A stretch of 64,000 nt of DNA from an uncultured Gammaproteobacteria bacterium (GCA_964589575.1 CAZPSE010000004.1:4075-68074); one strand, 5' to 3'; positions 6,736-61,976 are shown, counted from the stretch's first letter. Program-made: numbers and translations. The notes: generated by a model not told the origin, from the sequence alone.

Positions 6736-8241
6736 ATGAATGAAGAAAAGTTTAATCGTTTAATCGCTCAAGATTATTCGCACATTCCTTTAGTTCGCGC
6801 AGTCCTTGCCGATTTAGATACCCCTTTAAGCGCTTATTTAAAAGTAGCCAACGCTGCTAACAGTTATTTGTTTGAATCTGTTCAGGGTGGTGAAAAATGG
6901 GGGCGTTATTCCATTATTGGTCTGCCTTCTAAAACCGTTATTAAGGTTAATAAACACCGTATAACGATAGAAGAAGATGGTGTAGAGGTGCAAGGGGTCG
7001 ACGAAAATGACCCTTTAGCGTGGATTGAAAATTATCAAAAACAATTTGCTGTGCCAGAAATTGAAGGCTTAGATGTACTGGCCGGTGGTTTGGTTGGTTA
7101 TTTTGGTTACGATATTATTGGTTACATTGAACCCAAGCTTGCCAAGTTTGATAAAGACGATAGCGTGAATACGCCAGACATTATGTTGATGGTGAGTGAC
7201 CGCGTAATTGTTTTTGATAACCTTAGTGGTAAATTATATATCGTCGCTTATACCAATAAAGAACACGGTTATCAAAAAGGGGTGGACGAGTTAGACCGCA
7301 TTGAGCAATTGCTTGCTACAACAATTATTAGTAACGCAAATACAAAACAAGCTACTGGCGTAAGTGAAAAGGATTTTGTATCGGGCATTACTGAGCAAGG
7401 TTATAAAGACGCGGTTGATAAAGCGCGACAATATATTATTGATGGCGATGTGATGCAAGTAGTGTTATCACAGCGTTTGAGTGTTAAGTTTGATGCTGAA
7501 CCGATTGATTTGTATCGCGCATTGCGCTGTTTAAACCCGTCGCCTTATATGTATTTTATGAATATGGACGGGTTTCATATTGTGGGTTCATCGCCAGAAA
7601 TTTTGGTTCGTTTACAAAATAATCAGGTGACGGTAAGGCCCATTGCAGGAACCCGTCCTCGTGGCAAAACAGAATTAGAAGATAAAGCATTAGAGGCTGA
7701 ACTGTTAGCCGACCCGAAAGAGTTGGCGGAGCATTTAATGTTAATAGATTTAGGCCGAAACGATGCCGGCAGAGTAAGCAATACCGGTACGGTAAAACTA
7801 ACCGACAAAATGCTGGTAGAGCGTTACTCTCATGTTATGCATATTGTGTCTAACGTAACGGGTGACTTAAAAAAAGACCTAAGTGCGATAGATGTTTTAC
7901 GTGCAACCTTCCCCGCAGGTACAGTAAGTGGCGCACCTAAAGTACGTGCAATGGAAATAATAAATGAGCTAGAGCCTAGCAAACGTGGTGTTTATTCGGG
8001 CGCGGTGGGTTATTTGTCTTTTAATGGCGATATGGACGTGGCCATTGCGATTCGTACTGCAGTAATAAAAGATAACGAGCTAACCATACAAGCAGGTGCG
8101 GGTATCGTTTACGACTCTGTAGCGCAAAGTGAATGGGACGAAACCATGAATAAGGCGAGGGCGGTTATTAAAGCGGCAGAAATAGCATCGAACGGATTAA
8201 AACAACAGTCGCACTTAAACATTAAAGGGGTGAAAGCATGA
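6736..8241 (+). CDS. trpE: Anthranilate synthase component I
   Basis: [37 protein letters not shown] motifs; ATG 6736 preferred over TTG 6721. Confidence 0.96.
6991..7002 (+). repeat. Dispersed 12-mer CAAGGGGTCGAC; other copies at 10687(-), 18225, 26996(-), 32924, 36110, 44906, 48530(-), 52989, 61212
   Basis: At least ten exact copies found by eye. Confidence 0.9.
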
Positions 8242-8816
8242 TTTTAATGATTGATAATTATGATTCATTTACCTATAACCTAGTGCAGTACATGGCAGAA
8301 TTGGGTGCGGATGTACTGGTAAAAAGAAATGATGAAATCACTTTAGAAGAAGTGATTGCTTTAGCACCAAAAAAAATAGTTTTGTCGCCTGGCCCGTGTG
8401 CGCCAAACCAAGCAGGTATTTCCTTATCGGTTGTAGAAAAGTTGTCGGGTAAAATCCCATTATTAGGCGTGTGTTTAGGGCATCAAACAATTGGCCAAAC
8501 TTTTGGTGGCGACATTGTGCATGCCAGTAAAATTATGCACGGCAAAACCTCGCCCATTCATCATAAAAATACAGGTGTATTTAAAGGTTTAAGCAATCCG
8601 TTTATTGCTACGCGTTATCATTCGTTAGTGATAGATAAAAACACCTTGCCAAGTTGTTTAGACATTACCGCTTGGACAGAAAACGAAAAGGGAAAAATGG
8701 AAGAAATTATGGGTGTAAGGCATAACACTTTAGACGTGGAAGGGGTGCAGTTTCACCCAGAATCTATCCTTACGGAACACGGACACGATTTGCTTAAAAA
8801 CTTTTTAGATCGTTAA
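8238..8816 (+). CDS. trpG: Anthranilate synthase component II (glutamine amidotransferase)
   Basis: [29 protein letters not shown] motifs. Confidence 0.96.
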
Positions 8817-8833
8817 TCGCCAGGAAAATTATT

Positions 8834-9856
8834 ATGAATATCCAACAAGCCATTCAGTCGGTATTAGATAAAAAAGACTTGTCGCAAGATGAGATGTTTG
8901 CCGTAATGAAAATAATCATGACAGGGGACGCAACACCGTCTCAAATTGGTGGCTTTTTAATTGGTTTAAGAATGAAAGGTGAAACGGCCGACGAAATAAC
9001 GGCCGCCGCCAGCGTGATGCGAGAGCTGTCTACCAAGGTAGATGTAAAGGGCGATTATTTGGTCGATACCTGTGGCACGGGTGGTGATGCGTCTGGAACG
9101 TTTAACATATCTACCGTTAGCGCAATTGTAGCGGCGGCGGCTGGCGCGCAAGTAGCTAAGCATGGTAATCGTTCGGTCTCTAGCAAATCGGGCAGTGCAG
9201 ACGTTTTAGAGCGTTCTGGTGTTAATTTAAATTTGTCGGCAAAACAAGTAGCAAAATGCGTAGCAAAACTGGGCGTGGGTTTTATGTTTGCACCGCTACA
9301 CCACAGCGCAATGAAACACGCCATAGGCCCACGTAAAGAAATGGCAGTAAGAACCATTTTTAATTTATTAGGGCCACTTACCAACCCTGCAACTGCACCT
9401 AATCAAGTATTAGGTGTGTTTGACAAGCAGTGGGTAGAACCCATGGCACAAGTATTAAAATCATTAGGCAGCAACCACGTAATGGTGGTTAATGCAGAAG
9501 ACGGATTGGATGAAATAAGTATTGCGGCTAATACCACCGTTGCCGAATTAAAAAATGGAAGCATCACAACCTATACCCTCAACCCAAAAGATTACGGTTT
9601 TGAAAAATCGTCTTTAGCGGGTTTAAAAGCAAAAGATTCTGAAGCCAGTTTAGCGATAATTAATCAGGTTTTAAATAATGTGGATGGCGCAGCTAAAGAT
9701 ATAGTCGCTTTAAATGCAGGGGCCGCCATATATGTATCTGGTTTGGTTGAAAACTATCAACAAGGCATAGATAAAGCGATAGAAGTTATTGCCAATGGTC
9801 AGGCTAAAGCCACATGGCATGGTCTTGTTGCATTAACCAACTCTATGAAAGCTTAA
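8834..9856 (+). CDS. trpD: Anthranilate phosphoribosyltransferase
   Basis: DTCGTGGD, KHGNRSVSSKSGSAD motifs. Confidence 0.97.
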   Translation: MNIQQAIQSVLDKKDLSQDEMFAVMKIIMTGDATPSQIGGFLIGLRMKGETADEITAAASVMRELSTKVDVKGDYLVDTCGTGGDASGTFNISTVSAIVAAAAGAQVAKHGNRSVSSKSGSADVLERSGVNLNLSAKQVAKCVAKLGVGFMFAPLHHSAMKHAIGPRKEMAVRTIFNLLGPLTNPATAPNQVLGVFDKQWVEPMAQVLKSLGSNHVMVVNAEDGLDEISIAANTTVAELKNGSITTYTLNPKDYGFEKSSLAGLKAKDSEASLAIINQVLNNVDGAAKDIVALNAGAAIYVSGLVENYQQGIDKAIEVIANGQAKATWHGLVALTNSMKA

Positions 9857-9858
9857 TA

Positions 9859-10659
9859 ATGCCTACCCCAGATATTTTAAAAAAAATAGTAGCACGTAAA
9901 TACCAAGAAATTGAAGAACGTTCTGAATTAAGCCCAATAAATATACTAAAATCCATGGCGCACAAAGCCGACCCTGTTCGTGGGTTTATACAATCGATAG
10001 AAAATAAATTGGCTAATAATTTATCCGCAGTCATTGCAGAAATTAAAAAAGCCTCACCCAGTAAAGGCGTAATGAGAGAAAACTTTCATCCTGCCGACAT
10101 TGCTAAAAGTTATCAGCAAGGTGGTGCTGCCTGTTTATCTATCTTAACGGATAAAGATTTTTTTCAAGGTTCAGAAACCTACCTTCAAGAAGCACGCTCG
10201 GCTTGCAGTTTGCCGGTTATCCGTAAAGACTTTATCATCGAACCGTACCAAGTTTATGAAGCCAGAGCCATTAACGCCGATTGCATATTATTAATTGCCG
10301 CATGTTTAACAGACGATAAAATGAATGAACTAATAGCATTAGCGCATGAGTTTAATATGGACGTATTGCTAGAAGTGCATGACGAGCAAGAGATGGAGCG
10401 CGCTTTAAACACCCCCGCAAAATTATTAGGCATTAATAATAGAAATTTACGCACATTTAAAACGTCTTTACAAACGTCTATCGGTTTAAAAGAAATGGTT
10501 AAGGACGAAAATAGATTGTTGGTAACTGAAAGCGGTATACATACCAGTGAAGATGTTGCATTGATGAAAAAAAATCAATTAGATATTTTTTTAGTAGGTG
10601 AAGCGTTTATGAGAGCAGAAGAACCCGGCGAACAGTTGAAGCAGTTATTTTTTAGCTAA
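9859..10659 (+). CDS. trpC: Indole-3-glycerol phosphate synthase
   Basis: IAEIKKASPSKG, RKDFI, GINNRNL motifs; ATG 9859 preferred. Confidence 0.96.
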   Translation: MPTPDILKKIVARKYQEIEERSELSPINILKSMAHKADPVRGFIQSIENKLANNLSAVIAEIKKASPSKGVMRENFHPADIAKSYQQGGAACLSILTDKDFFQGSETYLQEARSACSLPVIRKDFIIEPYQVYEARAINADCILLIAACLTDDKMNELIALAHEFNMDVLLEVHDEQEMERALNTPAKLLGINNRNLRTFKTSLQTSIGLKEMVKDENRLLVTESGIHTSEDVALMKKNQLDIFLVGEAFMRAEEPGEQLKQLFFS

Positions 10660-10743
10660 ACAATATGCCTAAAAAGGGGCTAAATTGTCGACCCCTTGCT
10701 AATAAATTAGTGGTTAATAAAGTAACTAAAGTAGCGCTTAAAT

Positions 10744-11379
10744 TTAACGAGTACCAAAAATAACCATGGTTTTACCATGTGCAGTAATTAATTTTTGCTG
10801 CACTAACTCTTTTAAAACTCTACCCACCATCTCACGCGAACAACCAACAATACGGGCAATTTCTTGGCGAGTTACCTTAATTTGCATGCCGTCAGGGTGA
10901 GTCATTGCATCGGGCTCTTTGCATAACTCAAGCAATGTATGGGCTACTCGACCGGTAACATCTAAAAAGGCTAGGTCTCTAACTTTGTCATTGGTTTTTC
11001 TTAGGCGAGAAGCTAATTGAGAGGCCAGTGCAAAAATGACCTCTAAATTTGATTCTGCGACTTTTTTAAATTGATTGTAAGTGATTTCTGCCAGTTCACA
11101 TTCTGTTTTAGCAACAACCCAGGCGCTTCGTTGGGTATCTTCATCAAACAATCCCATCTCACCAAAAAACTCACCTTTGTTTAGGTAGGTTAATATCATT
11201 TCATGGCCCTCTTCGTCTTCTAAAACAACACTAACAGAGCCGTTAATGATGTAATAAAGCGATTCTGAATTGTCGCCTTCGTGAATAATGGTGCTTTTGG
11301 CAGAATAATGCTTTTTATGGCTGTTACGTAAGAGTTCTGTTGTCCAAGCTACTGAATCTTGTTTTTGTATTAAGGCCAT
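10744..11379 (-). CDS. crp: cAMP receptor protein (Crp/Vfr)
   Basis: [40 protein letters not shown] motifs. Confidence 0.95.
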
Positions 11380-11540
11380 GGTCTTTTTTTTAATTGTTAT
11401 CCATTATGATGATAGCATGCAATTAATAGATATGTATTCTTTAGCGCGCACAAATAAACGAAATAAAGTTTAATGCCAAGAGCTATTGAAAATGAAGCAT
11501 TGACTGTGATGTAATGAATTTTTTTTGATGGAGTGAGTTT

Positions 11541-18174: not shown

Positions 18175-18250
18175 ATGCACATTTTGTTGTTTCTTTTTAA
18201 TTTACCTTTTAAAAAAAATAAGACCAAGGGGTCGACGCTAGGAGGCATTT

Positions 18251-25954: not shown

Positions 25955-28321
25955 TTAGTCTCGTAGTTGAGCGCCAGTATCTTTTTGTAGATTACTGATG
26001 ATTAACGCAATATCGGCATTGATGTCTTCGTCGGTGAGGGTTTTTTCATCACTTTTAAAAGATATATTAAGCGCGATACTCTTTGAGCCTAAGTCTACAC
26101 CTTTTCCAGTGTAAACATCAAATATTTTTACATCATTCAGGTAGTTACATGATGTTTTGAATACTGAATCGAGTATGTTTTGAGCCGTTATTTTGTTTTT
26201 TATTAATACGGATAAGTCCCTTTTAACGCTTGGGTAGCGCGATAGTGCCTGAAATTTTATTTTTTTATTATTTTGCAATGCATCAAGTTTTATTTCAAAA
26301 ATATAACAGGCCTGGGTTAATTCAAAGGCTTTTTCAATGTCTGGGTGGACACGGCCAAAGGTGCCGATGCATTCATTATTAACCATAATATCGGCAGATT
26401 GCCCGGGGTGTAGTGATGGGTTGTTACTTATTTGTAAGGTATTTTTTTTAATGCCTAGGGTTAACAATAAAGATTCTATGTCGCCTTTCACATCGTAAAA
26501 GTCGACCATTTGTTTATTGCTGTCCCAACTTTGGCTTGCCGTACTGCCATAAATTAAACCAGAAAAATGACGCTGTTGAGCAATGTCGCCATTGTTTAGT
26601 TGGTTAAACGTTAAACCTTCTTCAAAAATACGCACACGGCTTTGTTGGCGTTTTAAATTATAGTCTAAAACTTTTAGTAAGCCTGGCCATATACTGTTTC
26701 GCATTACAGAAAGTTCTGACGAAATAGGGTTGCTTAGTTTAATGGCTTCGTTATTTGAAAACAGTGCAAAACTTTTAGGGTCAATAAAGCTGTAGGTAAT
26801 GGATTCTGTATAACCACGGGCAACCAATACGTTTTTCATTTTGTTGACGGTGGTGATTTTATTTTTTACAGGTTTGATGGTTAGCTCGGCTTTGGGCGAG
26901 CAGCGCTGAATGTTTTCGTAGCCGTACAAGCGCGCTATTTCTTCTACCAAATCCGCTTCTATATTAATATCAAAACGGTAAGAAGGGGCTAAAACGTCGA
27001 CCCCTTGCTCTGTTTTTGTTATTTGCATATTTAAGCTTTTAAGCATATTGATAATAATTGACGGTTTTAGGGTAATGCCTAAAATACGTTCAACCGTGTT
27101 CGTTTTTAATAAGATGCTTTTTTTACTGGCTACGCTTGAATTGACAACTTGGGTGGTACACGGTGTACCATCGCAAATATCATTTATTAAGCGCGTTGCT
27201 CTTTCTATGGCTTTTTCTTGTAAAAAATAGTCAACACCACGTTCAAACCTTTGGCCTGAGTCCGTCGTCATGCCGTAAGAACGCATTTTACCCGCTAAGG
27301 TAAGCGGATTAAATGCCGCGCTCTCTAACAGGATGTTTTGCGTGTTATCGTTTACAGCCGTTCTTAAACCGCCCATAATGCCTGCTATAGCTATAGCACC
27401 GTCCTCATCTGCGATGACTAAGGTGTCGTCAGTCATTTTTATTTCGCTTTCATCAAGTAGGGTGATTGTTTCGTCTTTTTGAGCGTATCTTATTGTGATG
27501 TTGCCTTTTACTTTATCTAAGTCAAAAGCGTGCATGGGTTGCCCCAACTCCATCATCACAAAGTTGGTAATGTCTACCGTTGGTGAAATAGTACGTATGC
27601 CAGAACGGCGAAGCTTTTCTGCCAGCCATAAAGGCGTGGTACTTTTTACATTAACGCCTTTAATAATACGGCTAACGTATTGTAAGCAGGCTTCACTTTC
27701 TGTAATGGTGATGGTTTTAGCGTCATCATTTTGTGCATCTATTGCTGTACAGTTGGGTAAAACTAAGGTGAAATTGTTTTTTGCTGCAATATCGCGTGCG
27801 ATACCTTGTAGGCTTAAACAGTCACCACGGTTTGGGGTTATGTCTATTTCGATTATGGTGTCATCTAAACCCAAGTAGTCGTATATGGCTGTGCCTAATG
27901 GTGCGTCAGAAGCTAACTCCATTAAACCATCAGATTTGTCGGCTAAGCCCACTTCGGTTTCTGAACACAACATACCAAACGATTCTACGCCACGAAGCTT
28001 GGCTTTTTTTATTTTAAAATCGCCAAATTGTGCGCCAATTTTAGCTAAGGGTATTTTAATGCCAGCGCGAGCATTTTTCGCACCGCATACTATTTGGTAA
28101 GTTTCGCTGCCATCACTTACACTACAAATTTGCAGTTTATCGGCATCGGGGTGGGCGGCGGCGGTTAATATTTCTGCAATCACTACATGCTTTAGGGTGC
28201 TATTACAGGCAGGGTTTACTTGTTCTACTTCTAAACCCAGTGAGGTTAGTTGTTCTTCTAGTAGTTTTGCATCAATGTCTTCTTGCCAAAACTCGTTTAT
28301 CCAATTTACGCTAAATTTCAT
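25955..28321 (-). CDS. pheT: Phenylalanine-tRNA ligase beta subunit
   Basis: [23 protein letters not shown] motifs. Confidence 0.97.
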
Positions 28322-32858: not shown

Positions 32859-32946
32859 AAAACAAGGTGCGAATTATAGCCATTTAAGGTTTTTTGTCAA
32901 TGAATTTAAGTGTTCTTAATAGGCAAGGGGTCGACGTTTTAGGCAT

Positions 32947-32973
32947 AAAAAAGCCGACACTTGGTCGGCTTTT
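32947..32973. terminator. Terminator after rpmG
   Basis: AAAAAAGCCGAC-ACTTG-GTCGGCTTTT. Confidence 0.75.
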
Positions 32974-36082: not shown

Positions 36083-36152
36083 TACCTATTTTAAGTAAAC
36101 AGTGCATACCAAGGGGTCGACGGTTCGACCCTTTTTTTTGCCTGTTATAAAA

Positions 36153-44544: not shown

Positions 44545-45312
44545 TTAAGCTAATGAACGCCCCCCGTCTACTGCCAATATTTGCCCTGTTATGTAACTGC
44601 TGTTTTCATTAATTAAAAAAGTTAGGGCATTAGCTAAGTCTTTTGGCTCGCCTTGTCTTTTCATTACAATATCGTTTAATATTTTATGTTTTTCTTCTTG
44701 GCTGTTTTCGGCATCACCTTCTGGCCATAAAATAGAGCCTGGCGAAATGCCATTTACACGTATTTCTGGCCCCAATTCTTTTGCTAAAGAACGCGTTAAC
44801 GCATAAAGCCCAGACTTGGCAGAACTGTATAAAGGGTAACCTTTTAACGGGTTTAAAGAGTGTATATCTACCATGTTGACTATACACCCCTTGGTTATTT
44901 TTAACCAAGGGGTCGACGCTTGGGCTAAAAAAAGCGGGGCTTTTAAATTAGATGCCATTAAGTCATGCCATTGTTCATCCGTTATTTCACCAACTGCAGT
45001 AGGATAAAAGCTAGACGCATTGTTGACCAACACATCTAAACGACCGAAGTGATTAATGGTTTGTTCTATTAACGTTTGATAGCTAGAAAATTCTGACAAG
45101 TTTGCTTGAACGGCGATAGCACTATTACTACGATTTTTATTTAGCTTGGTAACTAAAGTATCGGCACTTTTTTTAGAACCTCGATAGTGGACAACAACGT
45201 TGTAACCAAGTGCATGCAATGTTTCAGTAAAATAAGCACCTATTCGACGAGCGGCTCCCGTTATTAATACAGTTTTGTTGGATTCGTTTGGCTTAGATAC
45301 GGTAAAATTCAT
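44545..45312 (-). CDS. Pteridine reductase (FolM/PTR1-like short-chain dehydrogenase)
   Basis: TGAARRIG, NNASSFYPT, YSSAK motifs. Confidence 0.88.
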   Translation of the reverse strand: MNFTVSKPNESNKTVLITGAARRIGAYFTETLHALGYNVVVHYRGSKKSADTLVTKLNKNRSNSAIAVQANLSEFSSYQTLIEQTINHFGRLDVLVNNASSFYPTAVGEITDEQWHDLMASNLKAPLFLAQASTPWLKITKGCIVNMVDIHSLNPLKGYPLYSSAKSGLYALTRSLAKELGPEIRVNGISPGSILWPEGDAENSQEEKHKILNDIVMKRQGEPKDLANALTFLINENSSYITGQILAVDGGRSLA

Positions 45313-46530: not shown

Positions 46531-47328
46531 ATGGAAACCATACAAATATTTGTTTTAGCGATAGTACAAGGCATAACCGAGTTTTTACCAGTATCAAGTT
46601 CTGCGCACTTAATAATTGTACCCGAGTTACTAAAATGGCCAGACCAAGGTTTAGCTTTTGATGTGGCGGTACATTTAGGCACATTAACCGCGGTAATCAG
46701 TTACTTTAGAAAAGAAATATCCGTAATGATAATTGATTGGTTTGCCTCTTTAACAGGCAAGGGGTCCACGCCAGAGGCCCGTTTAGCATGGTTTGTTATA
46801 ATTGGAACCATACCTGTAGGGGTGGTGGGTTTAGCGTTTAAAGATTACATAGAGTTATATTTACGCTCCCCTATAATCATCGCATCTACAAGTATTGGTT
46901 TTGGTTTGTTATTACTTTATGCAGACAAAGTGCCCAAACCCGTTAGAACAGAAAAAAGTATGACGTTAAAAGACTGTTTGATTATTGGTAGTTTTCAGGC
47001 GGTGGCATTAATCCCCGGCACCTCGCGCTCAGGTGCAACCATGACCGCCGCAATGTTGTTAGGCATGACCAAAGAAGCGGCCGCAAGGTTCTCATTCTTA
47101 CTGTCTATACCGGTAATTGTCTTGTCGGGGTTGTTAGTTAGTAAAGACTTGTACGAATCGCCGGAGGCAATAGATTGGTATGCAATGACGCTTGGTTTTG
47201 GTTTATCTGCAGTAAGTGCGTTTATTTGTATTTGGTTGTTTTTGGCTTATATATCACGCATGGGCATGACGGCATTTGTTATTTATAGGGTTTTACTGGG
47301 CGTGTTTTTATTGGTGATTTTTACGTAA
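46531..47328 (+). CDS. uppP: Undecaprenyl-diphosphate phosphatase
   Basis: QGITEFLPVSSSAH, PGTSRSG, FSFLLSIP motifs. Confidence 0.96.
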   Translation: METIQIFVLAIVQGITEFLPVSSSAHLIIVPELLKWPDQGLAFDVAVHLGTLTAVISYFRKEISVMIIDWFASLTGKGSTPEARLAWFVIIGTIPVGVVGLAFKDYIELYLRSPIIIASTSIGFGLLLLYADKVPKPVRTEKSMTLKDCLIIGSFQAVALIPGTSRSGATMTAAMLLGMTKEAAARFSFLLSIPVIVLSGLLVSKDLYESPEAIDWYAMTLGFGLSAVSAFICIWLFLAYISRMGMTAFVIYRVLLGVFLLVIFT

Positions 47329-48325: not shown

Positions 48326-49399
48326 TTGTCAGAAAATTCCATCCAGATAGAAAAAAATGTACCCGATGCACTAGCAGGTATAAGGATTGATAAAGTTTTG
48401 CACGAAATGTGGCCAGAATATTCGCGCAGCCGACTACAAGCGATGATAAAAAACCAAAAGGTATGGGTAGACGACAAAACGGTTGGGGCAAAATTTAAAC
48501 CCATCGGTGGCGAAAAAGTGGTCTGTAGCGTCGACCCCTTGGTAGAAGAACAAGAAGTCATACCGCAAAACATACCGATAAATGTGCTATACGAAGATGA
48601 CGACATCATTATCATAAACAAACCAGTAAATATGGTAGTACACCCAGCCGCAGGCAATTGGGACGGCACACTACAAAATGGGCTTTTATACCGCTACCCA
48701 GAGTTAAACAACGTGCCGCGCTCAGGCATCGTGCATCGGTTAGACAAAGACACCAGCGGACTAATGGTAGTGGCGCGTAATTCAAAATCACATCAATACA
48801 TGGTAAAAATATTATCCAACCGCGACGTAAACCGACACTACATGACCATAGTAGACGGCGTACCCATAGCCGGTAAAACCATAGATGCACCCATAGCGCG
48901 TGACCCAAGAAACCGAAAAAAAATGGGCGTAGTGGTAAACGGTAAATATGCCATCACCCACTTTAAAGTAAAAGAAAAATACCGCCAACACAGCCTGCTA
49001 GACATAAAACTAGAAACAGGGCGCACCCACCAAATACGTGTACATTTAAGCCACATAGGCTACCCAGTCATTGGCGACACCACCTACGGCGCACGCAAAA
49101 AAATACCACCCGGTTGCGAAGACGGGTTAAAAGAAGCCATACAAAAATGTGACAGGCAAATGTTGCACGCCTATAAGTTATCGTTTATTCACCCCACTAA
49201 AAATAAATTAATGACATGGAAAGCGCCATTAGCACACGACATGTTAGAAATACTAAACCTGCTAGACACCGACTACCTACAACGCGGACAACTAGCCGCA
49301 GAATTTTTTAAAGAAGATGACGGCTATGACGACGACTACACCCCGCCAGAAGATGGCTACTACGAGGTAATAACCCTGTATGACTTTGAAGAAGAATGA
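48326..49399 (+). CDS. rluD: 23S rRNA pseudouridine synthase D
   Basis: S4 domain, HRLDKDTSG, LETGRTHQIRVH motifs; TTG 48326 preferred. Confidence 0.95.
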   Translation: MSENSIQIEKNVPDALAGIRIDKVLHEMWPEYSRSRLQAMIKNQKVWVDDKTVGAKFKPIGGEKVVCSVDPLVEEQEVIPQNIPINVLYEDDDIIIINKPVNMVVHPAAGNWDGTLQNGLLYRYPELNNVPRSGIVHRLDKDTSGLMVVARNSKSHQYMVKILSNRDVNRHYMTIVDGVPIAGKTIDAPIARDPRNRKKMGVVVNGKYAITHFKVKEKYRQHSLLDIKLETGRTHQIRVHLSHIGYPVIGDTTYGARKKIPPGCEDGLKEAIQKCDRQMLHAYKLSFIHPTKNKLMTWKAPLAHDMLEILNLLDTDYLQRGQLAAEFFKEDDGYDDDYTPPEDGYYEVITLYDFEEE

Positions 49400-50114
49400 A
49401 TTAGCGTTAATAACCCCCAACTGGCCAGCGCCTAAAAATATAAAAGCCATAAGCACCACCATTTACGGTGGCAAAAGCCAAGGCAACTACGCAACGTTAA
49501 ACCTAGCAGACCACGTAAAAGATAACCCCGCACACGTAGCCAAAAACAGAACGATACTAGAAAAACAACTCAACCTATCACTAAACACCAGTTGGTTAAA
49601 CCAAACGCACAGCAACAAATGGCAAGCCATGCCAGACACCAAAAAAAATAATGCCGATGCCAGCTACACCCAGCAAAGCCAAACCCCATGCAGTGTATTA
49701 ACTGCAGACTGCGTACCCATACTGTTTTGTAATAAACAGGGGGGCTTTGTAGCTGCCGTACATGCAGGTTGGCAAGGCGTGTTTAACGGCATAACTAAAA
49801 AAATAAAAGACATCTACCCAAACACCCACGAGCTAATGGCATGGATAGGCCCCTGCATAAAACAAAACAGCATGGAAGTAAGCGACGACTTTTATAATGA
49901 CTTTATAAAGCAAGATGCCCATTTTAAAAACGCCTTTGTCAAAAAAGACAAATGGCACTTCGACATGGTCGCCGCCACCAAAATGCAACTGCAAGCGGTA
50001 GGTGTAACCGCAATATACGGTGGTGACTATTGCACCTATAGCGACGAACAGTTTTTTTCATTTAGGCAAAATAGTGTAACGGGGCGCATAGCAACAATGG
50101 TATGGATTGACTAA
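49380..50114 (+). CDS. pgeF: PgeF/YfiH family protein
   Basis: LNLADHVKD, LTADCVPIL, AVHAGW, FFSFR motifs; follows rluD. Confidence 0.92.
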   Translation: MTLKKNELALITPNWPAPKNIKAISTTIYGGKSQGNYATLNLADHVKDNPAHVAKNRTILEKQLNLSLNTSWLNQTHSNKWQAMPDTKKNNADASYTQQSQTPCSVLTADCVPILFCNKQGGFVAAVHAGWQGVFNGITKKIKDIYPNTHELMAWIGPCIKQNSMEVSDDFYNDFIKQDAHFKNAFVKKDKWHFDMVAATKMQLQAVGVTAIYGGDYCTYSDEQFFSFRQNSVTGRIATMVWID

Positions 50115-50541: not shown

Positions 50542-50736
50542 TTATAGACGTTTGTCGCTTAAACCAGCTTGTTTTAACACTGCGTTTGCGGTGTGGCGTG
50601 ATTTACAGTTTTTAGGTACCGTAATTGCATTTTTACCTGTTTTAAACCAAACTTGATGTGAGCCTTTGCCTGATCTAATGTTTTTCCAGCCATCATTTTT
50701 TAATAGTTTTTTTACTGCTTTTTCAAAGCCATTCAT
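50542..50736 (-). CDS. HicA family toxin
   Basis: GW..IRSGKGSH, ITVP, VLKQAGL motifs; 64 aa. Confidence 0.88.
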   Translation of the reverse strand: MNGFEKAVKKLLKNDGWKNIRSGKGSHQVWFKTGKNAITVPKNCKSRHTANAVLKQAGLSDKRL

Positions 50737-51011
50737 GCAACCGCTAAATGGTCTGTAAAGATAACGTCAGCAGATGGTTTTTTTATTAAAAATTCTGGGT
50801 AGTTTAGTTCTAATAAGGCAGGTATTGCATCTTCGGACTCTTTGATTATTTCATCAAATGTTTTAGCTTCTAAAACCAGCCCTGTAATGTCTTGGCTTGT
50901 AGCAACGTATACGTTGGCTTCTTTATCGTGAATAACGTCTATTTTCATTGTTATGGTTGCGCCTAAACGCGATAACAATAATGATGCAGGGTATCTTAAT
51001 GGGTAATTCAT
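50733..51011 (-). CDS. DUF1902/HicB-like antitoxin
   Basis: D.EANVYVATSQDITGLVLEA.TFDE motif; stop overlaps the hicA start. Confidence 0.8.
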   Translation of the reverse strand: MNYPLRYPASLLLSRLGATITMKIDVIHDKEANVYVATSQDITGLVLEAKTFDEIIKESEDAIPALLELNYPEFLIKKPSADVIFTDHLAVA

Positions 51012-51296
51012 AATTTTAATTTCATTTTTGGGCTGAACATATAATCAATATAATAGCATTATTGTAGTTTTCTACATAATATATCTTATTTATTTAAGTG
51101 TTTTTTGTTTCAAGAAAGTTAAAAACTCGCTATTTTTGTTAAAATAAATAGGTGTGACTAGATTCAGAAAAATTGATGTTTTTTATTAATAGAAATGGTT
51201 CCCTTTAATATTGTTACATGATTGTTCTACCTTACCCTATCGCTCTCCAGATAGGAGAGGGAATAGCGACTGATAGTATTATTAACATGTTTCGAC

Positions 51297-51315
51297 ACGA
51301 GCCTTGCTCGTAACG
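51297..51315. repeat. Solo REP-like remnant
   Basis: ACGAGCCTTGCTCGTAACG shares the CGAGC-CTT-GCTCG hairpin and TAACG of the palindromes at 2.4-6.6 kb. Confidence 0.6.
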
Positions 51316-51393
51316 ATTGTTGGGTTTTAATTAAAGCGGTTGCTTTTGGTGGCGATATTGCTAATATAAATGTATGACAAGTAAGACAAAGAG

Positions 51394-51609
51394 GTGGTTA
51401 TGCTTTCAGTAAGGCTAGATGCAAAAACAGAGCAATTTTTAGAGAACATTGCGAGTGAAACTCAGCGGTCTAAAAGTTTTTTTGTTAAAGAAGCATTAAA
51501 AAATTATATGGACGATATGCAAGATTATTACGATGCAAAATTAAGAACAGATGATGATAAGCGCAACTTAATTTCGTTAAGTGAACTGGAAAAAGCACTT
51601 GGCATATAA
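51394..51609 (+). CDS. RelB/TraY-like ribbon-helix-helix antitoxin
   Basis: MLSVRLD...RSKSFFVKEAL...ISLSELEKALGI; paralog of 50127-50342. Confidence 0.85.
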   Translation: MVMLSVRLDAKTEQFLENIASETQRSKSFFVKEALKNYMDDMQDYYDAKLRTDDDKRNLISLSELEKALGI

Positions 51610-51856
51610 ATTAGTTTTTGATGACAAGGTTATTAAAGACTTTAAAAAAATAGATAAACAGTGGCAAATAAAAATACTAAATGTCATTAAACAAAAGCTG
51701 GTTTTAAATCCCTATTCAGGGAAAAAATTAGTGGGTGATTTATCTTCTTTCTATCGGTTAAGCGTTGCTAATTATCGTGTTATTTACCAAATTTTAAAAA
51801 ATGAACTGATTGTTACCATTATTAAAGTTAGGCACCGCAAAGAGGTATATAAATAA
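51599..51856 (+). CDS. RelE/StbE family toxin
   Basis: GKKLVGDL..YRLSVANYRVIY...KVRHRKEVY motifs; TTG 51599 preferred. Confidence 0.88.
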   Translation: MAYKLVFDDKVIKDFKKIDKQWQIKILNVIKQKLVLNPYSGKKLVGDLSSFYRLSVANYRVIYQILKNELIVTIIKVRHRKEVYK

Positions 51857-52193: not shown

Positions 52194-53729
52194 ATGCCTT
52201 ACGCCAAGGTTTTTACCCGTGCTATAAAAGCGATGGACGCACCACAGGTAGAGGTGGAGGTACATATATCGGGCGGTTTACCGGGTTTGTCTATTGTTGG
52301 TTTGCCAGAGGCTGCTGTAAAAGAAAGCAAAGACCGTGTACGTGCGGCCATTTTAAATTCTCATTTCGAGTTCCCAGCCGCCAGAATCACCATTAATTTA
52401 GCCCCTGCAGATTTACCCAAACAAGGCGGACGGTACGATTTGCCCATAGCAATAGGTATATTAATTGCCAGCGGTCAGTTACAGGGCGACAAAATAGAGC
52501 AGTACGAACTATTGGGCGAGCTGTCTTTAACGGGCGATTGCCGTTTTGTACCGGGGGTTATATCTGCCATTATGGCGGCCAGTGATAATAAAAAAACTGC
52601 TATTGTGCCAAAAAGTAATGAGCAAGAAGCGGCGTTAATGGACGATAGCGAAACCTTATTGGCGCAATCATTATTGGGTGTTTGTGCATTTTTAAATGGT
52701 GATGGTAAATTGGCCAGTGCAGAGCCTTTTTTGCATGGTGAGGCAGAAACTTGCCATTTAGACTTTGCCGATGTAAAAGGGCAAAGCCGAGTAAAACGCG
52801 CCTTAGAGGTGGTAGCGTCGGGCGGGCATCATTGCCTTATGGTGGGTGCGCCCGGTAGCGGCAAATCTATGTTGGCGAGTCGGTTACCGTCTATTTTACA
52901 ACCGCTTACGTCTAAAGAGGCGATAGAAACGGCCGCTGTTTATTCAATAAGTGACGTGGTTGGTGGCGCAAGTAAACAAAGTAATGACCAAGGGGTCGAC
53001 GTTTTAGGCATAAAAACCCGTCCTTTTAGAAGCCCGCATCACACCATTTCGTCTGCCGCTTTGGTGGGTGGCAGTTCTATCCCAACCCCTGGGGAAATAT
53101 CGCTTGCCCATAATGGCGTTTTGTTTTTAGATGAGTTGCCCGAGTTTGACAGAAAAGTATTGGAAGTATTGCGCGAGCCGTTAGAAAGTAAAAAAGTTAC
53201 CGTGTCACGCGCCAGCCAAAAGGCAGAGTTTCCTGCCAAGTTTCAGCTTATTGCCGCTATGAACCCTTGCCCCTGCGGATTTTTAGGCGACGCTAAAAAA
53301 GCCTGTAAATGTACGCCGCAACAAGTGGATAGGTACCGCGCAAAACTGTCTGGCCCTTTTTTAGACCGCATAGACGTGCAAATAGAAGTACCGCGAGTAC
53401 CAACAGAAGAATTAAAAAATGCGACACCATCTGACGCATCTAAAAAAATTAAACAACGGGTAAAAATAACGCAAGCTAAACAGTTGGCAAGGCAAAATAA
53501 ATTAAATACCGACTTAACGCCTAAAGAAGTCGAACAATATTGTGCTATTGATGAAATGGCAGAAAAAATGTTATTCATCGCGATGGAAAAGTTTGCCTTG
53601 TCTACCCGTGTATACCATCGCTTATTAAAAGTATCGCGCACTATTGCAGACATGGACAATTGCGACAACATTAACGCCACCCATATTAGCGAAGCGTTAA
53701 GTTACCGTTTTTTTGACCGCCAAGGTTAA
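52194..53729 (+). CDS. comM: ComM/YifB Mg-chelatase-like AAA+ ATPase
   Basis: NLAPADLPKQG, GAPGSGKS, RPFRSPHH, LFLDELPEF, AMNPCPCG motifs. Confidence 0.93.
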   Translation: MPYAKVFTRAIKAMDAPQVEVEVHISGGLPGLSIVGLPEAAVKESKDRVRAAILNSHFEFPAARITINLAPADLPKQGGRYDLPIAIGILIASGQLQGDKIEQYELLGELSLTGDCRFVPGVISAIMAASDNKKTAIVPKSNEQEAALMDDSETLLAQSLLGVCAFLNGDGKLASAEPFLHGEAETCHLDFADVKGQSRVKRALEVVASGGHHCLMVGAPGSGKSMLASRLPSILQPLTSKEAIETAAVYSISDVVGGASKQSNDQGVDVLGIKTRPFRSPHHTISSAALVGGSSIPTPGEISLAHNGVLFLDELPEFDRKVLEVLREPLESKKVTVSRASQKAEFPAKFQLIAAMNPCPCGFLGDAKKACKCTPQQVDRYRAKLSGPFLDRIDVQIEVPRVPTEELKNATPSDASKKIKQRVKITQAKQLARQNKLNTDLTPKEVEQYCAIDEMAEKMLFIAMEKFALSTRVYHRLLKVSRTIADMDNCDNINATHISEALSYRFFDRQG

Positions 53730-56317: not shown

Positions 56318-58033
56318 GTGGATTTATCTGGTGGTGAGATTCTTATAGAATCTTTAAAACAAGAAGGCGTGAAACATATATTTGGTTACCCCGGTGGTGC
56401 AGTATTGCATATTTATGATGCATTGTATCGCAGTGAAGGTATCGAGCATATATTGGTTAGGCATGAACAAGGTGCAACCCACGCAGCAGATGGATATGCA
56501 CGTTCTACAGGTAAAGCAGGTGTGGTATTAGTAACGTCTGGCCCTGGGGCTACTAACGCCGTTACCGGTATTGCCACAGCCTATATGGACTCTATCCCAA
56601 TGGTGATTGTTACCGGCCAAGTGCCTGCGGCGTTAATTGGCACGGATGCTTTTCAAGAAGTAGACATGGTGGGTATTACTCGCCCATGTGTTAAACACAA
56701 TTTTTTAGTAAAAAGTTTAGAAACACTTGCCGAAACCATTAAAAAAGCTTTTTATGTTGCACAGTCTGGCAGGCCTGGGCCTGTGGTTATTGATATTCCT
56801 AAAAACTTGACAGACCCTTCAATTAAAATACCGTTTAACTATCCAACTGGTGTGAGCATGCGTTCATACAATCCGGTAGTAGAAGGGCATATTGGGCAAA
56901 TTAAAAAAGCAGCGCAATTATTATTAGCTGCTAAAAGACCTGTAATTTATGCGGGTGGCGGTGTAATACTTGCTAAAGCACATCAACAGTTAAGAGACTT
57001 TGTAGACTATTTAGGCTATCCGGTTACCGAAACACTAATGGCATTAGGTTCCTACCCTGGTACTGCAGAAAAAAACATTGGTATGTTAGGTATGCATGGT
57101 ACTTATGAGGCCAATATGGCAATGCATGAGTGCGATGTTTTAATTTCACTCGGTGCACGTTTTGACGATCGAATAACGGGCGATGTTAAAAAGTTTTGTC
57201 CAGATGCAACCATAATTCATGTAGATATTGACCCTGCATCAATATCTAAAACGGTTCGTGTAGATTTGCCAATAGTGGGTGATGCTAAACAAGTTTTAAT
57301 TAGCATGATTGACGCGTTAAAAGAATTAACCGTAAAACCAGACCAGCAAGAATTAGAAAAATGGTGGGCACAAATTAATGAATGGCGTAAAGAAGACAGC
57401 CTTCAATACAACCGTGAAAGTGAAACCATTAAACCTCAGTTTGTTTTAGAAACGTTATCAAAATTAACAAAAGGTGATTTGTACTTAACGTCAGACGTTG
57501 GTCAGCACCAAATGTTTGCGGCCCAATTTGTAAAATTTAATGAGCCAAACCATTGGATTAATTCGGGTGGTTTAGGAACAATGGGTTTTGGTTTGCCCGC
57601 GGCAATGGGCGTTAAATTAGCGCACCCAGATGAAACCGTTTTTTGTGTAACGGGTGAAGCCAGCATACAAATGTGTTTGCAAGAACTGTCTACTTGTTTG
57701 CAGTATGATTTGCCCGTAATTATTATCAACCTAAATAATGGTTTTATGGGCATGGTACGCCAGTGGCAAGAAATGTTTTATGACAAACGTTATTCTCATT
57801 CTTACTTTGATGCCCTGCCCGATTTTGTCGGTTTAGCCGAAGCTTATGGCCATACCGGTATGAAAGTTACTAAAACGTCAGAAGTGGAAGGCGCGCTTAA
57901 AAAAGCCATGACAATAAAAGATAAAGTCGTCTTTATCGACTTTATTACCGACCCAGAAGAAAATGTATACCCGATGATAAAAGCCGGTCAAGGGCATCAT
58001 GAAATGCACTTGAGAAAGCGAGGGAGCAAATAA
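56318..58033 (+). CDS. ilvI: Acetolactate synthase large subunit
   Basis: FGYPGGAV, RHEQGA, GDA/NNG region; GTG 56318 after GGAG preferred over ATG 56300. Confidence 0.95.
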   Translation: MDLSGGEILIESLKQEGVKHIFGYPGGAVLHIYDALYRSEGIEHILVRHEQGATHAADGYARSTGKAGVVLVTSGPGATNAVTGIATAYMDSIPMVIVTGQVPAALIGTDAFQEVDMVGITRPCVKHNFLVKSLETLAETIKKAFYVAQSGRPGPVVIDIPKNLTDPSIKIPFNYPTGVSMRSYNPVVEGHIGQIKKAAQLLLAAKRPVIYAGGGVILAKAHQQLRDFVDYLGYPVTETLMALGSYPGTAEKNIGMLGMHGTYEANMAMHECDVLISLGARFDDRITGDVKKFCPDATIIHVDIDPASISKTVRVDLPIVGDAKQVLISMIDALKELTVKPDQQELEKWWAQINEWRKEDSLQYNRESETIKPQFVLETLSKLTKGDLYLTSDVGQHQMFAAQFVKFNEPNHWINSGGLGTMGFGLPAAMGVKLAHPDETVFCVTGEASIQMCLQELSTCLQYDLPVIIINLNNGFMGMVRQWQEMFYDKRYSHSYFDALPDFVGLAEAYGHTGMKVTKTSEVEGALKKAMTIKDKVVFIDFITDPEENVYPMIKAGQGHHEMHLRKRGSK

Positions 58034-58034
58034 T

Positions 58035-58526
58035 ATGCGCCACATTATTTCTATTTTAATCGAGAATGAATCAGGTGCTTTATCTTGGGTTGCCGGTTTG
58101 TTTTCTGCACGTGGTTACAACATCGAATCTTTAACGGTTGCACCAACTAACGATAGCAGTTTGTCACGCATGACAATTGTGACCAAAGGTTCAGAAGCGG
58201 TTATCGAGCAAATTACCAAACAGCTAAATAAATTGGTAGATGTTATTCACTTAGTCGAACTAACGCGTTTGCAACACATAGAACGTGAAATGATGATGAT
58301 TAAAGTTAGTGCCATTGGGCCGTGTCGTGAAGAAGTAAAACGATTAAGCGACATTTTTAGAGCAAAAATAATCGACGTAACCAGTAACAGCTATATTATA
58401 GAACTGACTGGCGAATCAACAAAATTAGATGCATTTGTTAATGCTATCGGTGACGAAAACATTGTAGAAGTAGTTAGAACCGGTGTTTCTGGCATTTCAC
58501 GTGGCGAACGCGCCCTAAAAAATTAA
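58035..58526 (+). CDS. ilvH: Acetolactate synthase small subunit
   Basis: ACT domain ENESGALS, GYNIESL, QLNKLVDV motifs. Confidence 0.95.
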   Translation: MRHIISILIENESGALSWVAGLFSARGYNIESLTVAPTNDSSLSRMTIVTKGSEAVIEQITKQLNKLVDVIHLVELTRLQHIEREMMMIKVSAIGPCREEVKRLSDIFRAKIIDVTSNSYIIELTGESTKLDAFVNAIGDENIVEVVRTGVSGISRGERALKN

Positions 58527-58569
58527 GATTAAAATTATTAAAGAGACATCTCTTTACACTATAAATTAA

Positions 58570-59595
<1,026 letters not shown>

Positions 59596-59617
59596 TTAGT
59601 TGTTCGTTGCTAAGTTT

Positions 59618-59649
59618 AAAATAGCCATCTAAACAATGGCTATTTTTTT
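59618..59649 (+). terminator. Terminator after ilvC
   Basis: AAAATAGCCAT...ATGGCTATTTTTTT. Confidence 0.7.
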
Positions 59650-59688
59650 GTCTAATATAAAATATATAAACCGTAAAAGTAAAATTTA

Positions 59689-60291
59689 ATGATTACACCA
59701 ATCAAAGAACTTAGAACGTCGTTTTTTATTTCTTTTTTGTTATTGTTTTTTTATAGTTTTTACTCGCTTAGTGTCTGGGTAATAATAAGCTGGTTAACGT
59801 GGTTCATATTTTTAGGGTTATTTAAATCAAAATCTCGTAATGTGCCGTCACACCCTTTAGCGGTTCTTAGCCCGGTAGATGGTGAACTGTTGTTTACACA
59901 AGCTGAAAAAGTGCCTTTTTTAAATATTCCAGGCATTCACTCTAGAATTAAAAAACCTTTTTATAGCGAACAGATGGTTTATTCACCTGTTGAAGGAACC
60001 GTTAAAGAGGTGTGGTTTCCACATTCAGAAATGGGTGATGGAAAATACAGTATATTAATTGAAACAGATGAGTCTGAATCCATTATTATACAGTTAGAAC
60101 GTACTGGTATTGGTTATACGCGATTTTTTGTTCAACCTGGACAACGGATTGGGCAAGGACGAAAAATTGGTTTTTGTGTATTTTGTCATCATGTAGATGT
60201 ATTTATCCCTGAAAATGCCATTATAGAAAGTCACTCTAAAAAAGTTTTAGCAGCAGAAGAAGTATTGGCAGAATTGATACATGAAAATTAA
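59689..60291 (+). CDS. psd: Phosphatidylserine decarboxylase homolog (short type), divergent
   Basis: VLSPVDG, SPVEG, GQRIGQG..IG..F..VDVFIP pattern; located between ilvC and pssA; catalytic GS motif absent. Confidence 0.65.
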   Translation: MITPIKELRTSFFISFLLLFFYSFYSLSVWVIISWLTWFIFLGLFKSKSRNVPSHPLAVLSPVDGELLFTQAEKVPFLNIPGIHSRIKKPFYSEQMVYSPVEGTVKEVWFPHSEMGDGKYSILIETDESESIIIQLERTGIGYTRFFVQPGQRIGQGRKIGFCVFCHHVDVFIPENAIIESHSKKVLAAEEVLAELIHEN

Positions 60292-60317
60292 TAAGACCTC
60301 TAAAAAATAGAAAGCCT

Positions 60318-61085
60318 ATGAATAAAAACACACCCCAATCAAAAGTTAAAAAAGGCATTTTTTTATTGCCTAACTTATTAACCACAACGGCTTTATTTGC
60401 CGGTTTTTTTGCCATAATTTCGGCAATGGAAGGGCGTTTTGAAACTGCCGCAATTTCTATTTTGGTTGCTATGATTTTTGATGGGTTAGATGGTCGCGTG
60501 GCAAGAATGACCAATACACAAAGTCAATTTGGTGCAGAATACGACAGCCTGTCAGACATGGTTTCTTTTGGTCTAGCGCCAGCATTAATAATGTATGAGT
60601 GGTCATTATCGCAAATGTCTACTTATGGCACAGCTTACGGTCGTTTGGGTTGGGTTGCTGCATTTTTATATACTGCCTGTGCAGCACTGCGTTTAGCCCG
60701 TTTTAATGTATCGGTTGGCACCGCAGACAAACGTTTTTTTCAAGGGCTTGCAAGCCCGGCAGCAGCTGCCATTATGGTGGTGTTTATTTGGGTAGGTGAC
60801 GATTTAGGTTATGCAGGTAAAAGCCTGTCTCTTTTGGCTTTAGGGGTCACCATTGTGGCGGGTTTATTAATGGTTAGTAACTTTTCTTATTACAGTTTTA
60901 AAGATTTTGGCTCAAATAAAAAAGTCCCCTTTGTGGCGATGATTATTTTGGTTCTATTTTTTGTTTTAACAACCATCGATCCATCTAAATTTTTATTGCT
61001 TATTTTTGTACTGTATGCCGCTTCTGGGCCAGTAACTTCACTTATCAGAAAAATACGAAAGTTAAAACGTGTCAAAGGTAATTAG
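60318..61085 (+). CDS. pssA: CDP-diacylglycerol-serine O-phosphatidyltransferase
   Basis: LLPNLLT, DGLDGRVAR..FGAEYDSLSD, LRLARFN motifs. Confidence 0.95.
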   Translation: MNKNTPQSKVKKGIFLLPNLLTTTALFAGFFAIISAMEGRFETAAISILVAMIFDGLDGRVARMTNTQSQFGAEYDSLSDMVSFGLAPALIMYEWSLSQMSTYGTAYGRLGWVAAFLYTACAALRLARFNVSVGTADKRFFQGLASPAAAAIMVVFIWVGDDLGYAGKSLSLLALGVTIVAGLLMVSNFSYYSFKDFGSNKKVPFVAMIILVLFFVLTTIDPSKFLLLIFVLYAASGPVTSLIRKIRKLKRVKGN

Positions 61086-61127
61086 CAGCGTTTTGAATGC
61101 AGTGACAAAAAAGTAGAGAATTAAAGT

Positions 61128-61976
61128 ATGAGCGTTTATGATTTACATTGTCATTCCACTTTTTCAGATGGTGTTTTGACTCCTGAAGAGCTTATAAAAC
61201 GAGCTAAAAAGCAAGGGGTCGACGTTTTAGCCCTTACAGATCACGATACGGTTACGGGTTTAAAAGAGGCTCAAGCTCAGGCAATTAAAAGTAACCTTAA
61301 ATTAATATCTGGTGTAGAAATTTCTGTAAGCTGGCAAGGTAAATTAATTCATATAGTTGCGTTGAATATAGATGCAAGCAATAAACAGTTACTTGAAGGG
61401 CTTCAATATAATCGTAACCTTCGTCGCGTACGAGCAGAAAAGATGGCGGTTAAATTAGAAAAGCTTGGTATAAAAAACGTACTCGAAAAGGTGACGCAAT
61501 ATGCTGGCGAAGCTGCTATTACACGCACACACTTTGCTAGGCTGTTGGTAGATTGCGGTTATGCCAAAACCATGAACGATGTTTTTAAAAAGTACATGGT
61601 ATCGGGCAAACCCGGTTTTGTAAAAATGCAATGGGTAGAAATGGAAACGGCACTCGGATGGATTAGAGAGGCTGGTGGGATTGCCGTTATTGCTCACCCA
61701 GGGCGATATAAAATGACTCGCTCATGGTTAATAAAGTTGATAGAAGATTTTAAACAATGGGGTGGTCAAGCTATCGAGGTTGCCTATAGCACTGCAAACA
61801 AAGATGAAGTTAAAAAGTTTACAGAACTTGCTTTAAAGTTTGAATTGCTTGCCTCATGCGGGTCTGATTTTCACGATCCTAAAATGCATTGGTTAGAACT
61901 TGGCATGCACAAAGCTTTACCTGTGGCCGTTAGCCCTGTTTGGGAAGATGATTCTTGGTCTAACGAACGTATTTAA
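61128..61976 (+). CDS. PHP domain phosphoesterase (YciV/TrpH-like)
   Basis: DLHCHST.SDG, LTDHD, AHP, GSDFH motifs. Confidence 0.92.
   Translation: MSVYDLHCHSTFSDGVLTPEELIKRAKKQGVDVLALTDHDTVTGLKEAQAQAIKSNLKLISGVEISVSWQGKLIHIVALNIDASNKQLLEGLQYNRNLRRVRAEKMAVKLEKLGIKNVLEKVTQYAGEAAITRTHFARLLVDCGYAKTMNDVFKKYMVSGKPGFVKMQWVEMETALGWIREAGGIAVIAHPGRYKMTRSWLIKLIEDFKQWGGQAIEVAYSTANKDEVKKFTELALKFELLASCGSDFHDPKMHWLELGMHKALPVAVSPVWEDDSWSNERI

Follow-up and report, generated by a model that had tools for sequence, protein, structure and literature searches.

A clade-specific 12-nucleotide DNA word in two dialects, a candidate uptake signal of uncultured Gammaproteobacteria

The 12-mer CAAGGGGTCGAC occurs in ten exact copies in a stretch of 64,000 nucleotides from an uncultured gammaproteobacterium (GCA_964589575.1, CAZPSE010000004.1:4075-68074; "the window" denotes this stretch at its full length), as compared to 0.00 copies expected from dinucleotide shuffles (n = 100). 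It is the commonest 11-mer/12-mer of the window and represents a real, strongly non-random and clade-specific motif, which in more distant relatives is replaced, at the same sites, by a second dialect. With a probability of roughly 0.55, the word would be a signal of the DNA uptake type, belonging to a third lineage after Neisseriaceae and Pasteurellaceae, kept in these genomes by biased uptake and recombination.

An over-represented word in two dialects

Strong over-representation of the word, with at least 10 exact copies, had been claimed in an earlier note on this DNA; ten copies were found, and all positions and strands agreed (Table 1). Allowing up to two mismatches added four sites, one with a single and three with two mismatches, close to the 1.6 expected by chance; perfect and one-mismatch copies thus occur in the window at a ratio of 10:1. 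The base following the word is G at nine of the ten copies, and four copies continue with GTTTTAG, as counted previously. Mapping of open reading frames (ORFs) likewise reproduced the assignment of four copies to intergenic regions and of six to ORFs, in three frames, with the readings QGVD, VDPL and STP.

Enrichment persisted when synonymous codons were shuffled within the 64 ORFs of the window, a codon-preserving check proposed in the earlier note (6 in-gene copies observed, mean of the shuffles 0.022). The peptide QGVD occurs four times, as compared to 0.16 expected from the amino-acid composition of the window ORFs, and the codons at all four sites include the rare GGG (9% of glycine codons) and GTC (9% of valine codons; P = 0.0026 per site). 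Because of the outcome of the synonymous shuffle and the rare codons in QGVD, the enrichment must act on DNA and not on protein. A protein-level QGVD repeat was rejected for the same rare codons, and because both strands, spacers and three frames are used. An adaptor or linker artefact was discarded as well, since copies lie in frame in conserved genes and the word recurs in independent NCBI, ENA, JGI and Logan assemblies. In an Rfam search of the window, one tRNA was the only match, which means that the motif does not belong to a known RNA.

At five sites (in trpE, pheT, rluD, comM and the spacer 3' of trpC), the window carries this word, termed dialect 1, and relatives carry dialect 2, CAAGGGTTCGA(T/C), at the orthologous position. 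In the five site pairs, 50 of 50 core bases outside the dialect positions are identical and the flanks are 59% identical; all nine core differences fall on positions 7 and 12. The gains of QGVD and VDPL for which the earlier note had suggested inspecting the orthologs are matched by QGFD and VEPL in dialect-2 relatives, while outgroups differ in PheT and TrpE. At the motif site of PheT, a tryptophan present in 116 of 121 homologues is replaced by valine (dialect 1) or phenylalanine (dialect 2), and in TrpE the outgroup sequence E[TS][LIF]E gives way to QG[VF]D. The dialect switch is accompanied by a change from D to E in RluD. Outgroup ComM proteins read DQG[LF]D at the motif site, which is already near the motif, so that the comM site was pre-adapted. 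In these alignments, it is the motif that determines the protein sequence and not the reverse.

Sites are also gained and lost among the related loci, which are labelled here by L-numbers (L002 to L120). Motif copies at pheT codon 668 and in trpG occur only in dialect-2 genomes, a copy in a MOFRL-family gene only in L114, and one at trpE codon 183 only in L117. In the alignments of five coding sites (in trpE, pheT, rluD, the pteridine reductase gene and comM), the copy of the motif is not itself inserted.

Enrichment outside the window, another point which had been proposed for checking, was observed: a closer relative has the same word, and distant relatives have CAAGGGTTCGA(T/C). Dialect 1 reads CAAGGGGTCGA(C) in the relatives, with three copies in the 10.6 kb of L005 and three in the 5.8 kb of L114, and is also present in L110, L115 and L116. 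Dialect 2 was found in more distant relatives of 43-45% G+C, with five copies each in L002, L004 and L108 and four each in L117 and L118; the sum of 23 copies in 61 kb corresponds to approximately one per 2.7 kb. When the ascertained sites are subtracted, approximately 19 copies per 61 kb are left, still approximately 310 per Mb. L108 contains five perfect copies and one one-mismatch copy of CAAGGGTTCGA, as compared to 0.26 expected at up to one mismatch. Since dialect 2 is found in the deeper branches, we consider it probably ancestral, and dialect 1 derived.

The motif family is confined to a narrow clade, as it is absent from the outgroup loci, from L111 to L113 and from L120. The outgroup control comprised 80 pheT loci (1.4 Mb) of other Gammaproteobacteria and of Betaproteobacteria, collected in a genome scan guided by PheT alignment (at most 47% identity among the matches listed), and did not contain a single match to the degenerate 12-mer CAAGGGKTCGAY. 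In L111 and L113, whose ComM is 58% identical, no AAGGG[G/T]TCGA core was present, and a k-mer count did not reveal an over-represented G+C-rich word; L112, the L111/L113 locus from another assembly, had no match to CAAGGGKTCGAY. L120 (ENA ERZ27251196, k141_111685), the TrpE of which is 68% identical, has kept the gene order of the window (cytochrome c, rpe, HAD, trpEGDC, crp, osmC), and neither a core match nor another over-represented G+C-rich word was detected in the whole locus; it is a convenient motif-free comparison genome. On the loci compared here, the boundary of the clade that carries the motif lies between 74% and 68% TrpE identity.

The exact 19-mer CAAGGGGTCGACGTTTTAG gave no match in species-representative genomes and in JGI metagenomes, indicating that the species of the window is absent from both collections. 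A scan of metagenomes for the degenerate motif yielded 22 matches, 19 of which were isolated matches due to chance, for the most part in contigs rich in G+C. Three low-GC metagenome contigs of one project (L089, L100 and L103), which are not related to the fetched loci, contain CAAGGGGTCGACGCTACAG within the complete extended form GACGCTACAG with a T-run after it; they probably represent further, unlinked loci of dialect-1 organisms. A scan of viral contigs did not give any match.

The window has a G+C content of 38% and codes for ordinary gammaproteobacterial housekeeping functions, comprising trp, his, aro and ilv genes, thrS-infC-rpmI-rplT-pheST, an aa3 cytochrome oxidase, rep and crp. Close relatives identified by PheT, ComM and TrpE (66-90% identity) were few and without exception metagenomes or metagenome-assembled genomes (MAGs), namely GCA_015487625.1, GCA_054032215.1, the assemblies REYS20 and FORT17, one JGI sample and several Logan runs. 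The style of their labels suggests that the REYS20 and FORT17 assemblies stem from hydrothermal-vent studies. The next-best relatives show 47-69% identity in these proteins and include, as named organisms, Spongiibacter, Microbulbifer, Methylococcales and vent symbionts. The PheT of a Haemophilus MAG is 42% identical, and no named genome among the matches listed exceeds 48% PheT identity. As the best named relatives lie elsewhere and the PheT of the Haemophilus MAG is only 42% identical, the host is not a member of the Pasteurellaceae.

Both dialects share the invariant core CAAGGG-TCGA. The extended form of dialect 1 is (A)(C/G)CAAGGGGTCGAC-G-yTwyAG, followed by T/A runs; that of dialect 2 is CAAGGGTTCGA-(T/C)-(A/G), with T at 70-80% at positions +13 to +16 (15 dialect-2 sites), and T-runs are found at a similar distance after several dialect-1 copies. 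At five of the ten window copies (6991, 10687, 26996, 36110 and 61212) the core is followed after 8-9 nt by CCCTT or CCCCTT, which can pair with AAGGG(G); among the relatives, only L005 and L002/L004 showed this feature, at their orthologous pheT site. The hairpin at 36111-36134, with ten pairs and a TTTTT tail, is the top terminator-like site of its region, and L002 contains a perfect inverted motif pair (4764/4787) just after a gene.

Spacing of the window copies is more even than random (nine intervals of 3.2-8.8 kb, coefficient of variation 0.39, P = 0.003). Their orientation is 7:3, with GC skew being positive throughout the window. Over six clade loci, the ratio is 17 leading to 14 lagging, the leading strand being assigned from local GC skew only, and single loci of 6-16 kb contain copies in either orientation. 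The check for strand bias suggested in the earlier note thus revealed copies on both strands, without replication polarity. About 26% of the clade sites are intergenic, as compared to about 15% non-coding DNA (our tally of positions against called genes), and the motif density amounts to 156-375 per Mb.

The ComM protein of the window (52950-53016) contains an 11-residue insertion, DVVGGASKQSN, directly 5' of the motif copy, which is missing from 119 of 119 other homologues. The 28 nt starting with the motif in comM, CAAGGGGTCGACGTTTTAGGCATAAAAA, are identical at the intergenic copy (32924-32951). The insertion and the shared 28 nt hint that a motif site underwent copying or conversion. The intergenic copy in turn is located approximately 24 nt upstream of the -35 box of a perfect consensus sigma-70 promoter (TTGACA, 16-nt spacer, TATAAT; 32873-32900, minus strand), upstream of tRNA-Val(GAC).

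Table 1. Motif copies in the window and the state of the site in each dialect
Location	Position	Strand	Remark	Dialect 1	Dialect 2
trpE, in frame QGVD, codon 90	6991..7002	+	exact match; site absent in L117, L120	QGVD, window	QGFD/CAAGGGTTCGAT, L118
Intergenic, between convergent trpC and crp	10687..10698	-	exact match; AAGGGG...CCCCTT hairpin	window	L118, same place, same orientation
Intergenic, ampE-like gene/DegP-type protease gene	18225..18236	+	exact match
pheT, in frame QGVD, codon 438	26996..27007	-	exact match	CAA GGG GTC GAC GTT (QGVDV), window and L005	CAA GGG TTC GAT ATT (QGFDI), L002 and L004
Intergenic, just upstream of tRNA-Val promoter	32924..32935	+	exact match; 28 nt identical to comM copy
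Intergenic, between convergent ubiA-family and SCO1 genes	36110..36134	+	with degenerate inverted copy and T-run
Pteridine reductase gene, antisense, reads STPW	44906..44917	+	orthologous codon in L005 keeps motif
uppP/bacA gene	46758..46769	+	sole one-mismatch copy, CAAGGGGTCCAC
rluD, antisense, reads VDPL	48530..48541	-	exact match	VDPL, window and L114	VEPL, L108
comM/yifB, in frame QGVD	52989..53000	+	exact match	QGVD, window, L110, L114	QGFD, L108
PHP-family phosphatase gene, in frame QGVD	61212..61223	+	exact match

Biased uptake and alternative explanations

A DNA uptake-type signal is the most likely interpretation of the motif, because every testable population-genetic feature fits described uptake sequences. 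A surface receptor of the transformation machinery would prefer DNA carrying CAAGGGGTCGAC(G) and a weaker T-rich flank, so that uptake and recombination would favour DNA of the same lineage over other DNA. Such an uptake bias may act as a molecular drive by which perfect copies multiply and persist on either strand, both in spacers and at positions tolerated by the proteins. If the preference of the receptor shifted at position 7 (G/T) and position 12 (C/T), all sites would follow, resulting in two dialects. In the two known uptake systems, the receptor is a type IV minor pilin. The likeness to uptake sequences suggested in the earlier note is borne out by the clade restriction, the two dialects, the lack of polarity, the even spacing, the paucity of mismatched copies and the hairpins and inverted pairs, whereas competence of the cells, biased uptake and the identity of the receptor are what we infer.

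A number of points speak against an uptake signal. The only competence-related gene of the window is comM/yifB, which is also carried by non-competent bacteria; apart from it, pilin or com genes were found neither in the window nor in the fetched loci, and a pilin-type N-terminus was not detected in any frame of the window. The density of dialect 1 falls near the bottom of the range of known uptake sequences. Pairing of CCCTT with the core is present even inside trpE, pheT and the PHP gene, and is not predicted by an uptake model. The related loci were retrieved via genes that carry the motif in the window, which introduces an ascertainment bias, and the genome-wide distribution and the relations to ori and ter rest on approximately 140 kb of clade DNA; the clade loci also cover regions outside the window content, with thiC, accC, ycaO, pgi and pur genes. 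Finally, concerted dialect change and conservation of sites would also result from any co-evolving DNA-binding reader.

Such a reader could be a lineage-specific intracellular protein, involved in chromosome organisation, in repair loading or self-marking, or in defence, with its binding sites being selected and co-evolving with it and no uptake taking place. We regard this as possible but unlikely. It would account for the even spacing, the invariant core in both dialects and the retention of orthologous sites over approximately 30-40% flank divergence, and it agrees with the fact that comM/yifB was the only competence gene seen in the window and the fetched loci. Known architecture sites (matS, parS, SBS, KOPS), however, are few, palindromic or polar, and tolerant of degeneracy, whereas the motif has hundreds of copies per Mb and is asymmetric and non-polar, with perfect copies exceeding one-mismatch copies 10:1. 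Besides, close relatives gain and lose sites (pheT codon 668, trpG, the MOFRL gene), which fits drive better than fixed functional sites, and loss of the near-invariant tryptophan of PheT is costly for the sake of a single site among many redundant ones.

It is improbable that the motif is a Chi-type recombination hotspot, i.e., a self marker for RecBCD or AddAB. Its density of one per 3-6 kb is Chi-like, and in the window the G-rich strand carries more copies than the other (7:3). The Chi sites known so far measure 5-8 nt and show a clear co-orientation with replication. The strong co-orientation that characterizes Chi and KOPS as polar motifs was not seen for the word, as the ratio of 17:14 over the clade loci has a probability of only 0.012 if a 75% bias is assumed (P for at most 17 of 31), and its at least 12 specified bases plus flank far exceed the length of any Chi site.

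A methylation-linked or restriction-modification repeat centred on GTCGAC or TCGA, resembling HIP1 of cyanobacteria (GCGATCGC), had been named as an alternative in the earlier note, and receives marginally less credence than Chi. Like the motif, HIP1 is abundant in genes and spacers, has lineage variants and contains a palindromic restriction-type hexamer, which in the motif is a property of one dialect: dialect 1 indeed holds the SalI palindrome GTCGAC, and TCGA is present in both dialects. Other signs of restriction pressure exist in the window, where no GATATC, GGCGCC or GACGTC occurs and GATC is reduced to about half. The analogy is weakened, however, by the sister dialect TTCGAT, which loses the palindrome at the same sites while the motif persists. 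In contrast to HIP1, the 12-mer is asymmetric and its density is much lower. Outside the motif, GTCGAC is unremarkable, with three occurrences versus about 8 expected from base composition, i.e., not strongly avoided, and TCGA occurs 104 times versus 118; moreover, a DNA methyltransferase was not detected among the window genes.

An origin of the copies as residues or termini of a small mobile or palindromic element, of the repetitive extragenic palindromic (REP) or miniature inverted-repeat transposable element (MITE) type, or as mere terminator modules, is for practical purposes ruled out because the intragenic copies with aligned orthologs are not insertions: although some copies lie in hairpins, one of them a good terminator, and a separate REP system is present in the window, 60% of the window copies (6 of 10) are genic, in three frames, none of the copies at the five aligned coding sites is an inserted unit (the window ComM has its 11-residue insertion just 5' of the copy), similarity ends after about 20-28 nt, and the REP family of the window is unrelated in sequence and strictly extragenic.

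Other features of the window

Three near-perfect palindromes of 46-48 nt, CCGTACCGAGCAAGGCTCGTAACG(CG)TTACGAGCCTTGCTCGGTACGG, are located at 2417-2465, 5788-5835 and 6524-6572, and a partial copy was found near 51298. Two of the three directly flank an ORF (5848-6513) with an IS200-like Y1 transposase domain. This ORF and the palindromes show the classic layout of a REP-associated tyrosine transposase (RAYT) and its REP hairpins, a family unrelated to the 12-mer. The first REP palindrome is adjoined by a perfect tandem repeat of the 8-mer AAACCACA (2527-2579, 6.6 copies). Two ORFs with an Lcl C-terminal domain (PF07603; 3421-3951 and 5234-5761) lie beside the RAYT gene in the motif-free left end of the window, with two ORFs lacking a family match between them.

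Between the ORF at 49380-50114 and comM, there is a gene-poor stretch (50542-51856) without a motif copy. It contains small genes of the toxin-antitoxin type, coding for a HicA toxin with a DUF1902 partner and for a ParE-family toxin with a small ORF upstream.

Several palindromes are depleted in the window, namely GATATC (0 observed, 8.2 expected), GGCGCC (0 and 6.1), GACGTC (0 and 5.6) and GATC (50 and 113), which suggests restriction-modification pressure and a probable lack of Dam methylation.

Comparison with known uptake sequences

Uptake sequences have been characterized as enriched short words without orientation bias, which are regularly spaced, arise by mutation, form subclade types or dialects and are accompanied by AT-rich segments downstream (Redfield et al. 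2006, PMC1626085; PMC12616744). For the uptake signal sequence (USS) of Pasteurellaceae, an excess of perfect over mismatched copies has been described (PMC1626085). The USS of the Actinobacillus pleuropneumoniae type (Apl-USS), ACAAGCGGTC, has 429 copies in 2.2 Mb, and densities of 200-500 per Mb are known for this type (PMC1626085, PMC12616744). Both USS types (Hin and Apl) share the invariant inner core GCGG, whereas the DNA uptake sequence (DUS) of Neisseriaceae has the inner core CTG within a GCCGTCTGAA-like word; a paper of 2025 stated that only Neisseriaceae and Pasteurellaceae are known to have such motifs (PMC12616744). In a literature search, neither dialect was found to be mentioned as a genomic repeat, the motif strings occurred only inside cloning primers, and none of the searchable papers named the assembly accessions.

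The known system closest to the motif in sequence and anatomy is the Apl-type USS. The motif core CAAGGGGTC and the USS core CAAGCGGTC agree at 8 of 9 bases (CAAG-GGTC). Both combine a short conserved core with a less conserved T- or AT-rich segment about one helical turn downstream, the spacing and sequence of these segments not being identical, and both occur on both strands, in genes and spacers, with more perfect than one-mismatch copies and with subclade variants. The density of the motif (156-375 per Mb) is within the Apl-USS-like range. By a rough estimate, a random 12-mer would match some known uptake word this well with a chance of 0.002-0.01. In contrast to the Apl-USS, the motif has GGGG (dialect 1) or GGGT (dialect 2) in place of the inner core GCGG, and its conserved core is longer (11-13 nt, continuing with TCGAC or TCGAT). 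Since GCGG is not kept and the host does not belong to the Pasteurellaceae, the motif is not a member of the Apl-USS family. The statement of the earlier note that the word matches neither USS nor DUS thus needs to be qualified: it holds with respect to the inner core and to the unrelated DUS, but not with respect to the fit to the Apl core. We take the resemblance as a lead and not as proof of common descent.

In its dialect behaviour, the motif is most like the DUS of Neisseriaceae, of which eight dialects are distinguished, while the sequences are unrelated. Both are continuous motifs of about 12 nt without orientation bias. In both, the dialects track phylogeny, with one or two positions varying around a core that is invariant; sites at conserved positions change dialect jointly, and inverted pairs serve as terminators. 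However, the motif contains neither the CTG inner core nor a GCCGTCTGAA-like word, belongs to a gammaproteobacterial and not a betaproteobacterial host, and has a density several-fold below the approximately one per kb of DUS. A receptor of the ComP type, as in the DUS system, was not identified in the window or in the fetched clade loci.

The two families known to have uptake sequences, Neisseriaceae and Pasteurellaceae, are host-associated. If the motif is an uptake signal, a third, environmental and distantly related lineage would show that self-preferring transformation is not peculiar to mucosal commensals. We consider it an even bet that apparently free-living Gammaproteobacteria of deep-sea vents form this third lineage, with sequence-specific uptake and evolving dialects of their own, and that the nearness of CAAGGG[G/T]TCGA to the Actinobacillus-type USS suggests either that Gammaproteobacteria share an ancient receptor specificity or that the two systems converged on one DNA shape.

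The difference of two positions between the dialects, with a joint switch at orthologous sites, represents a clean natural experiment. The identity of the USS receptor is still debated; a comparison of the minor pilins of dialect-1 and dialect-2 genomes could reveal the receptor residues that read the two bases. The near-match to the Apl-type USS makes a shared ancestry of uptake specificities testable. Even without a role in uptake, a DNA word that overwrites a near-invariant tryptophan of PheT calls for an explanation.

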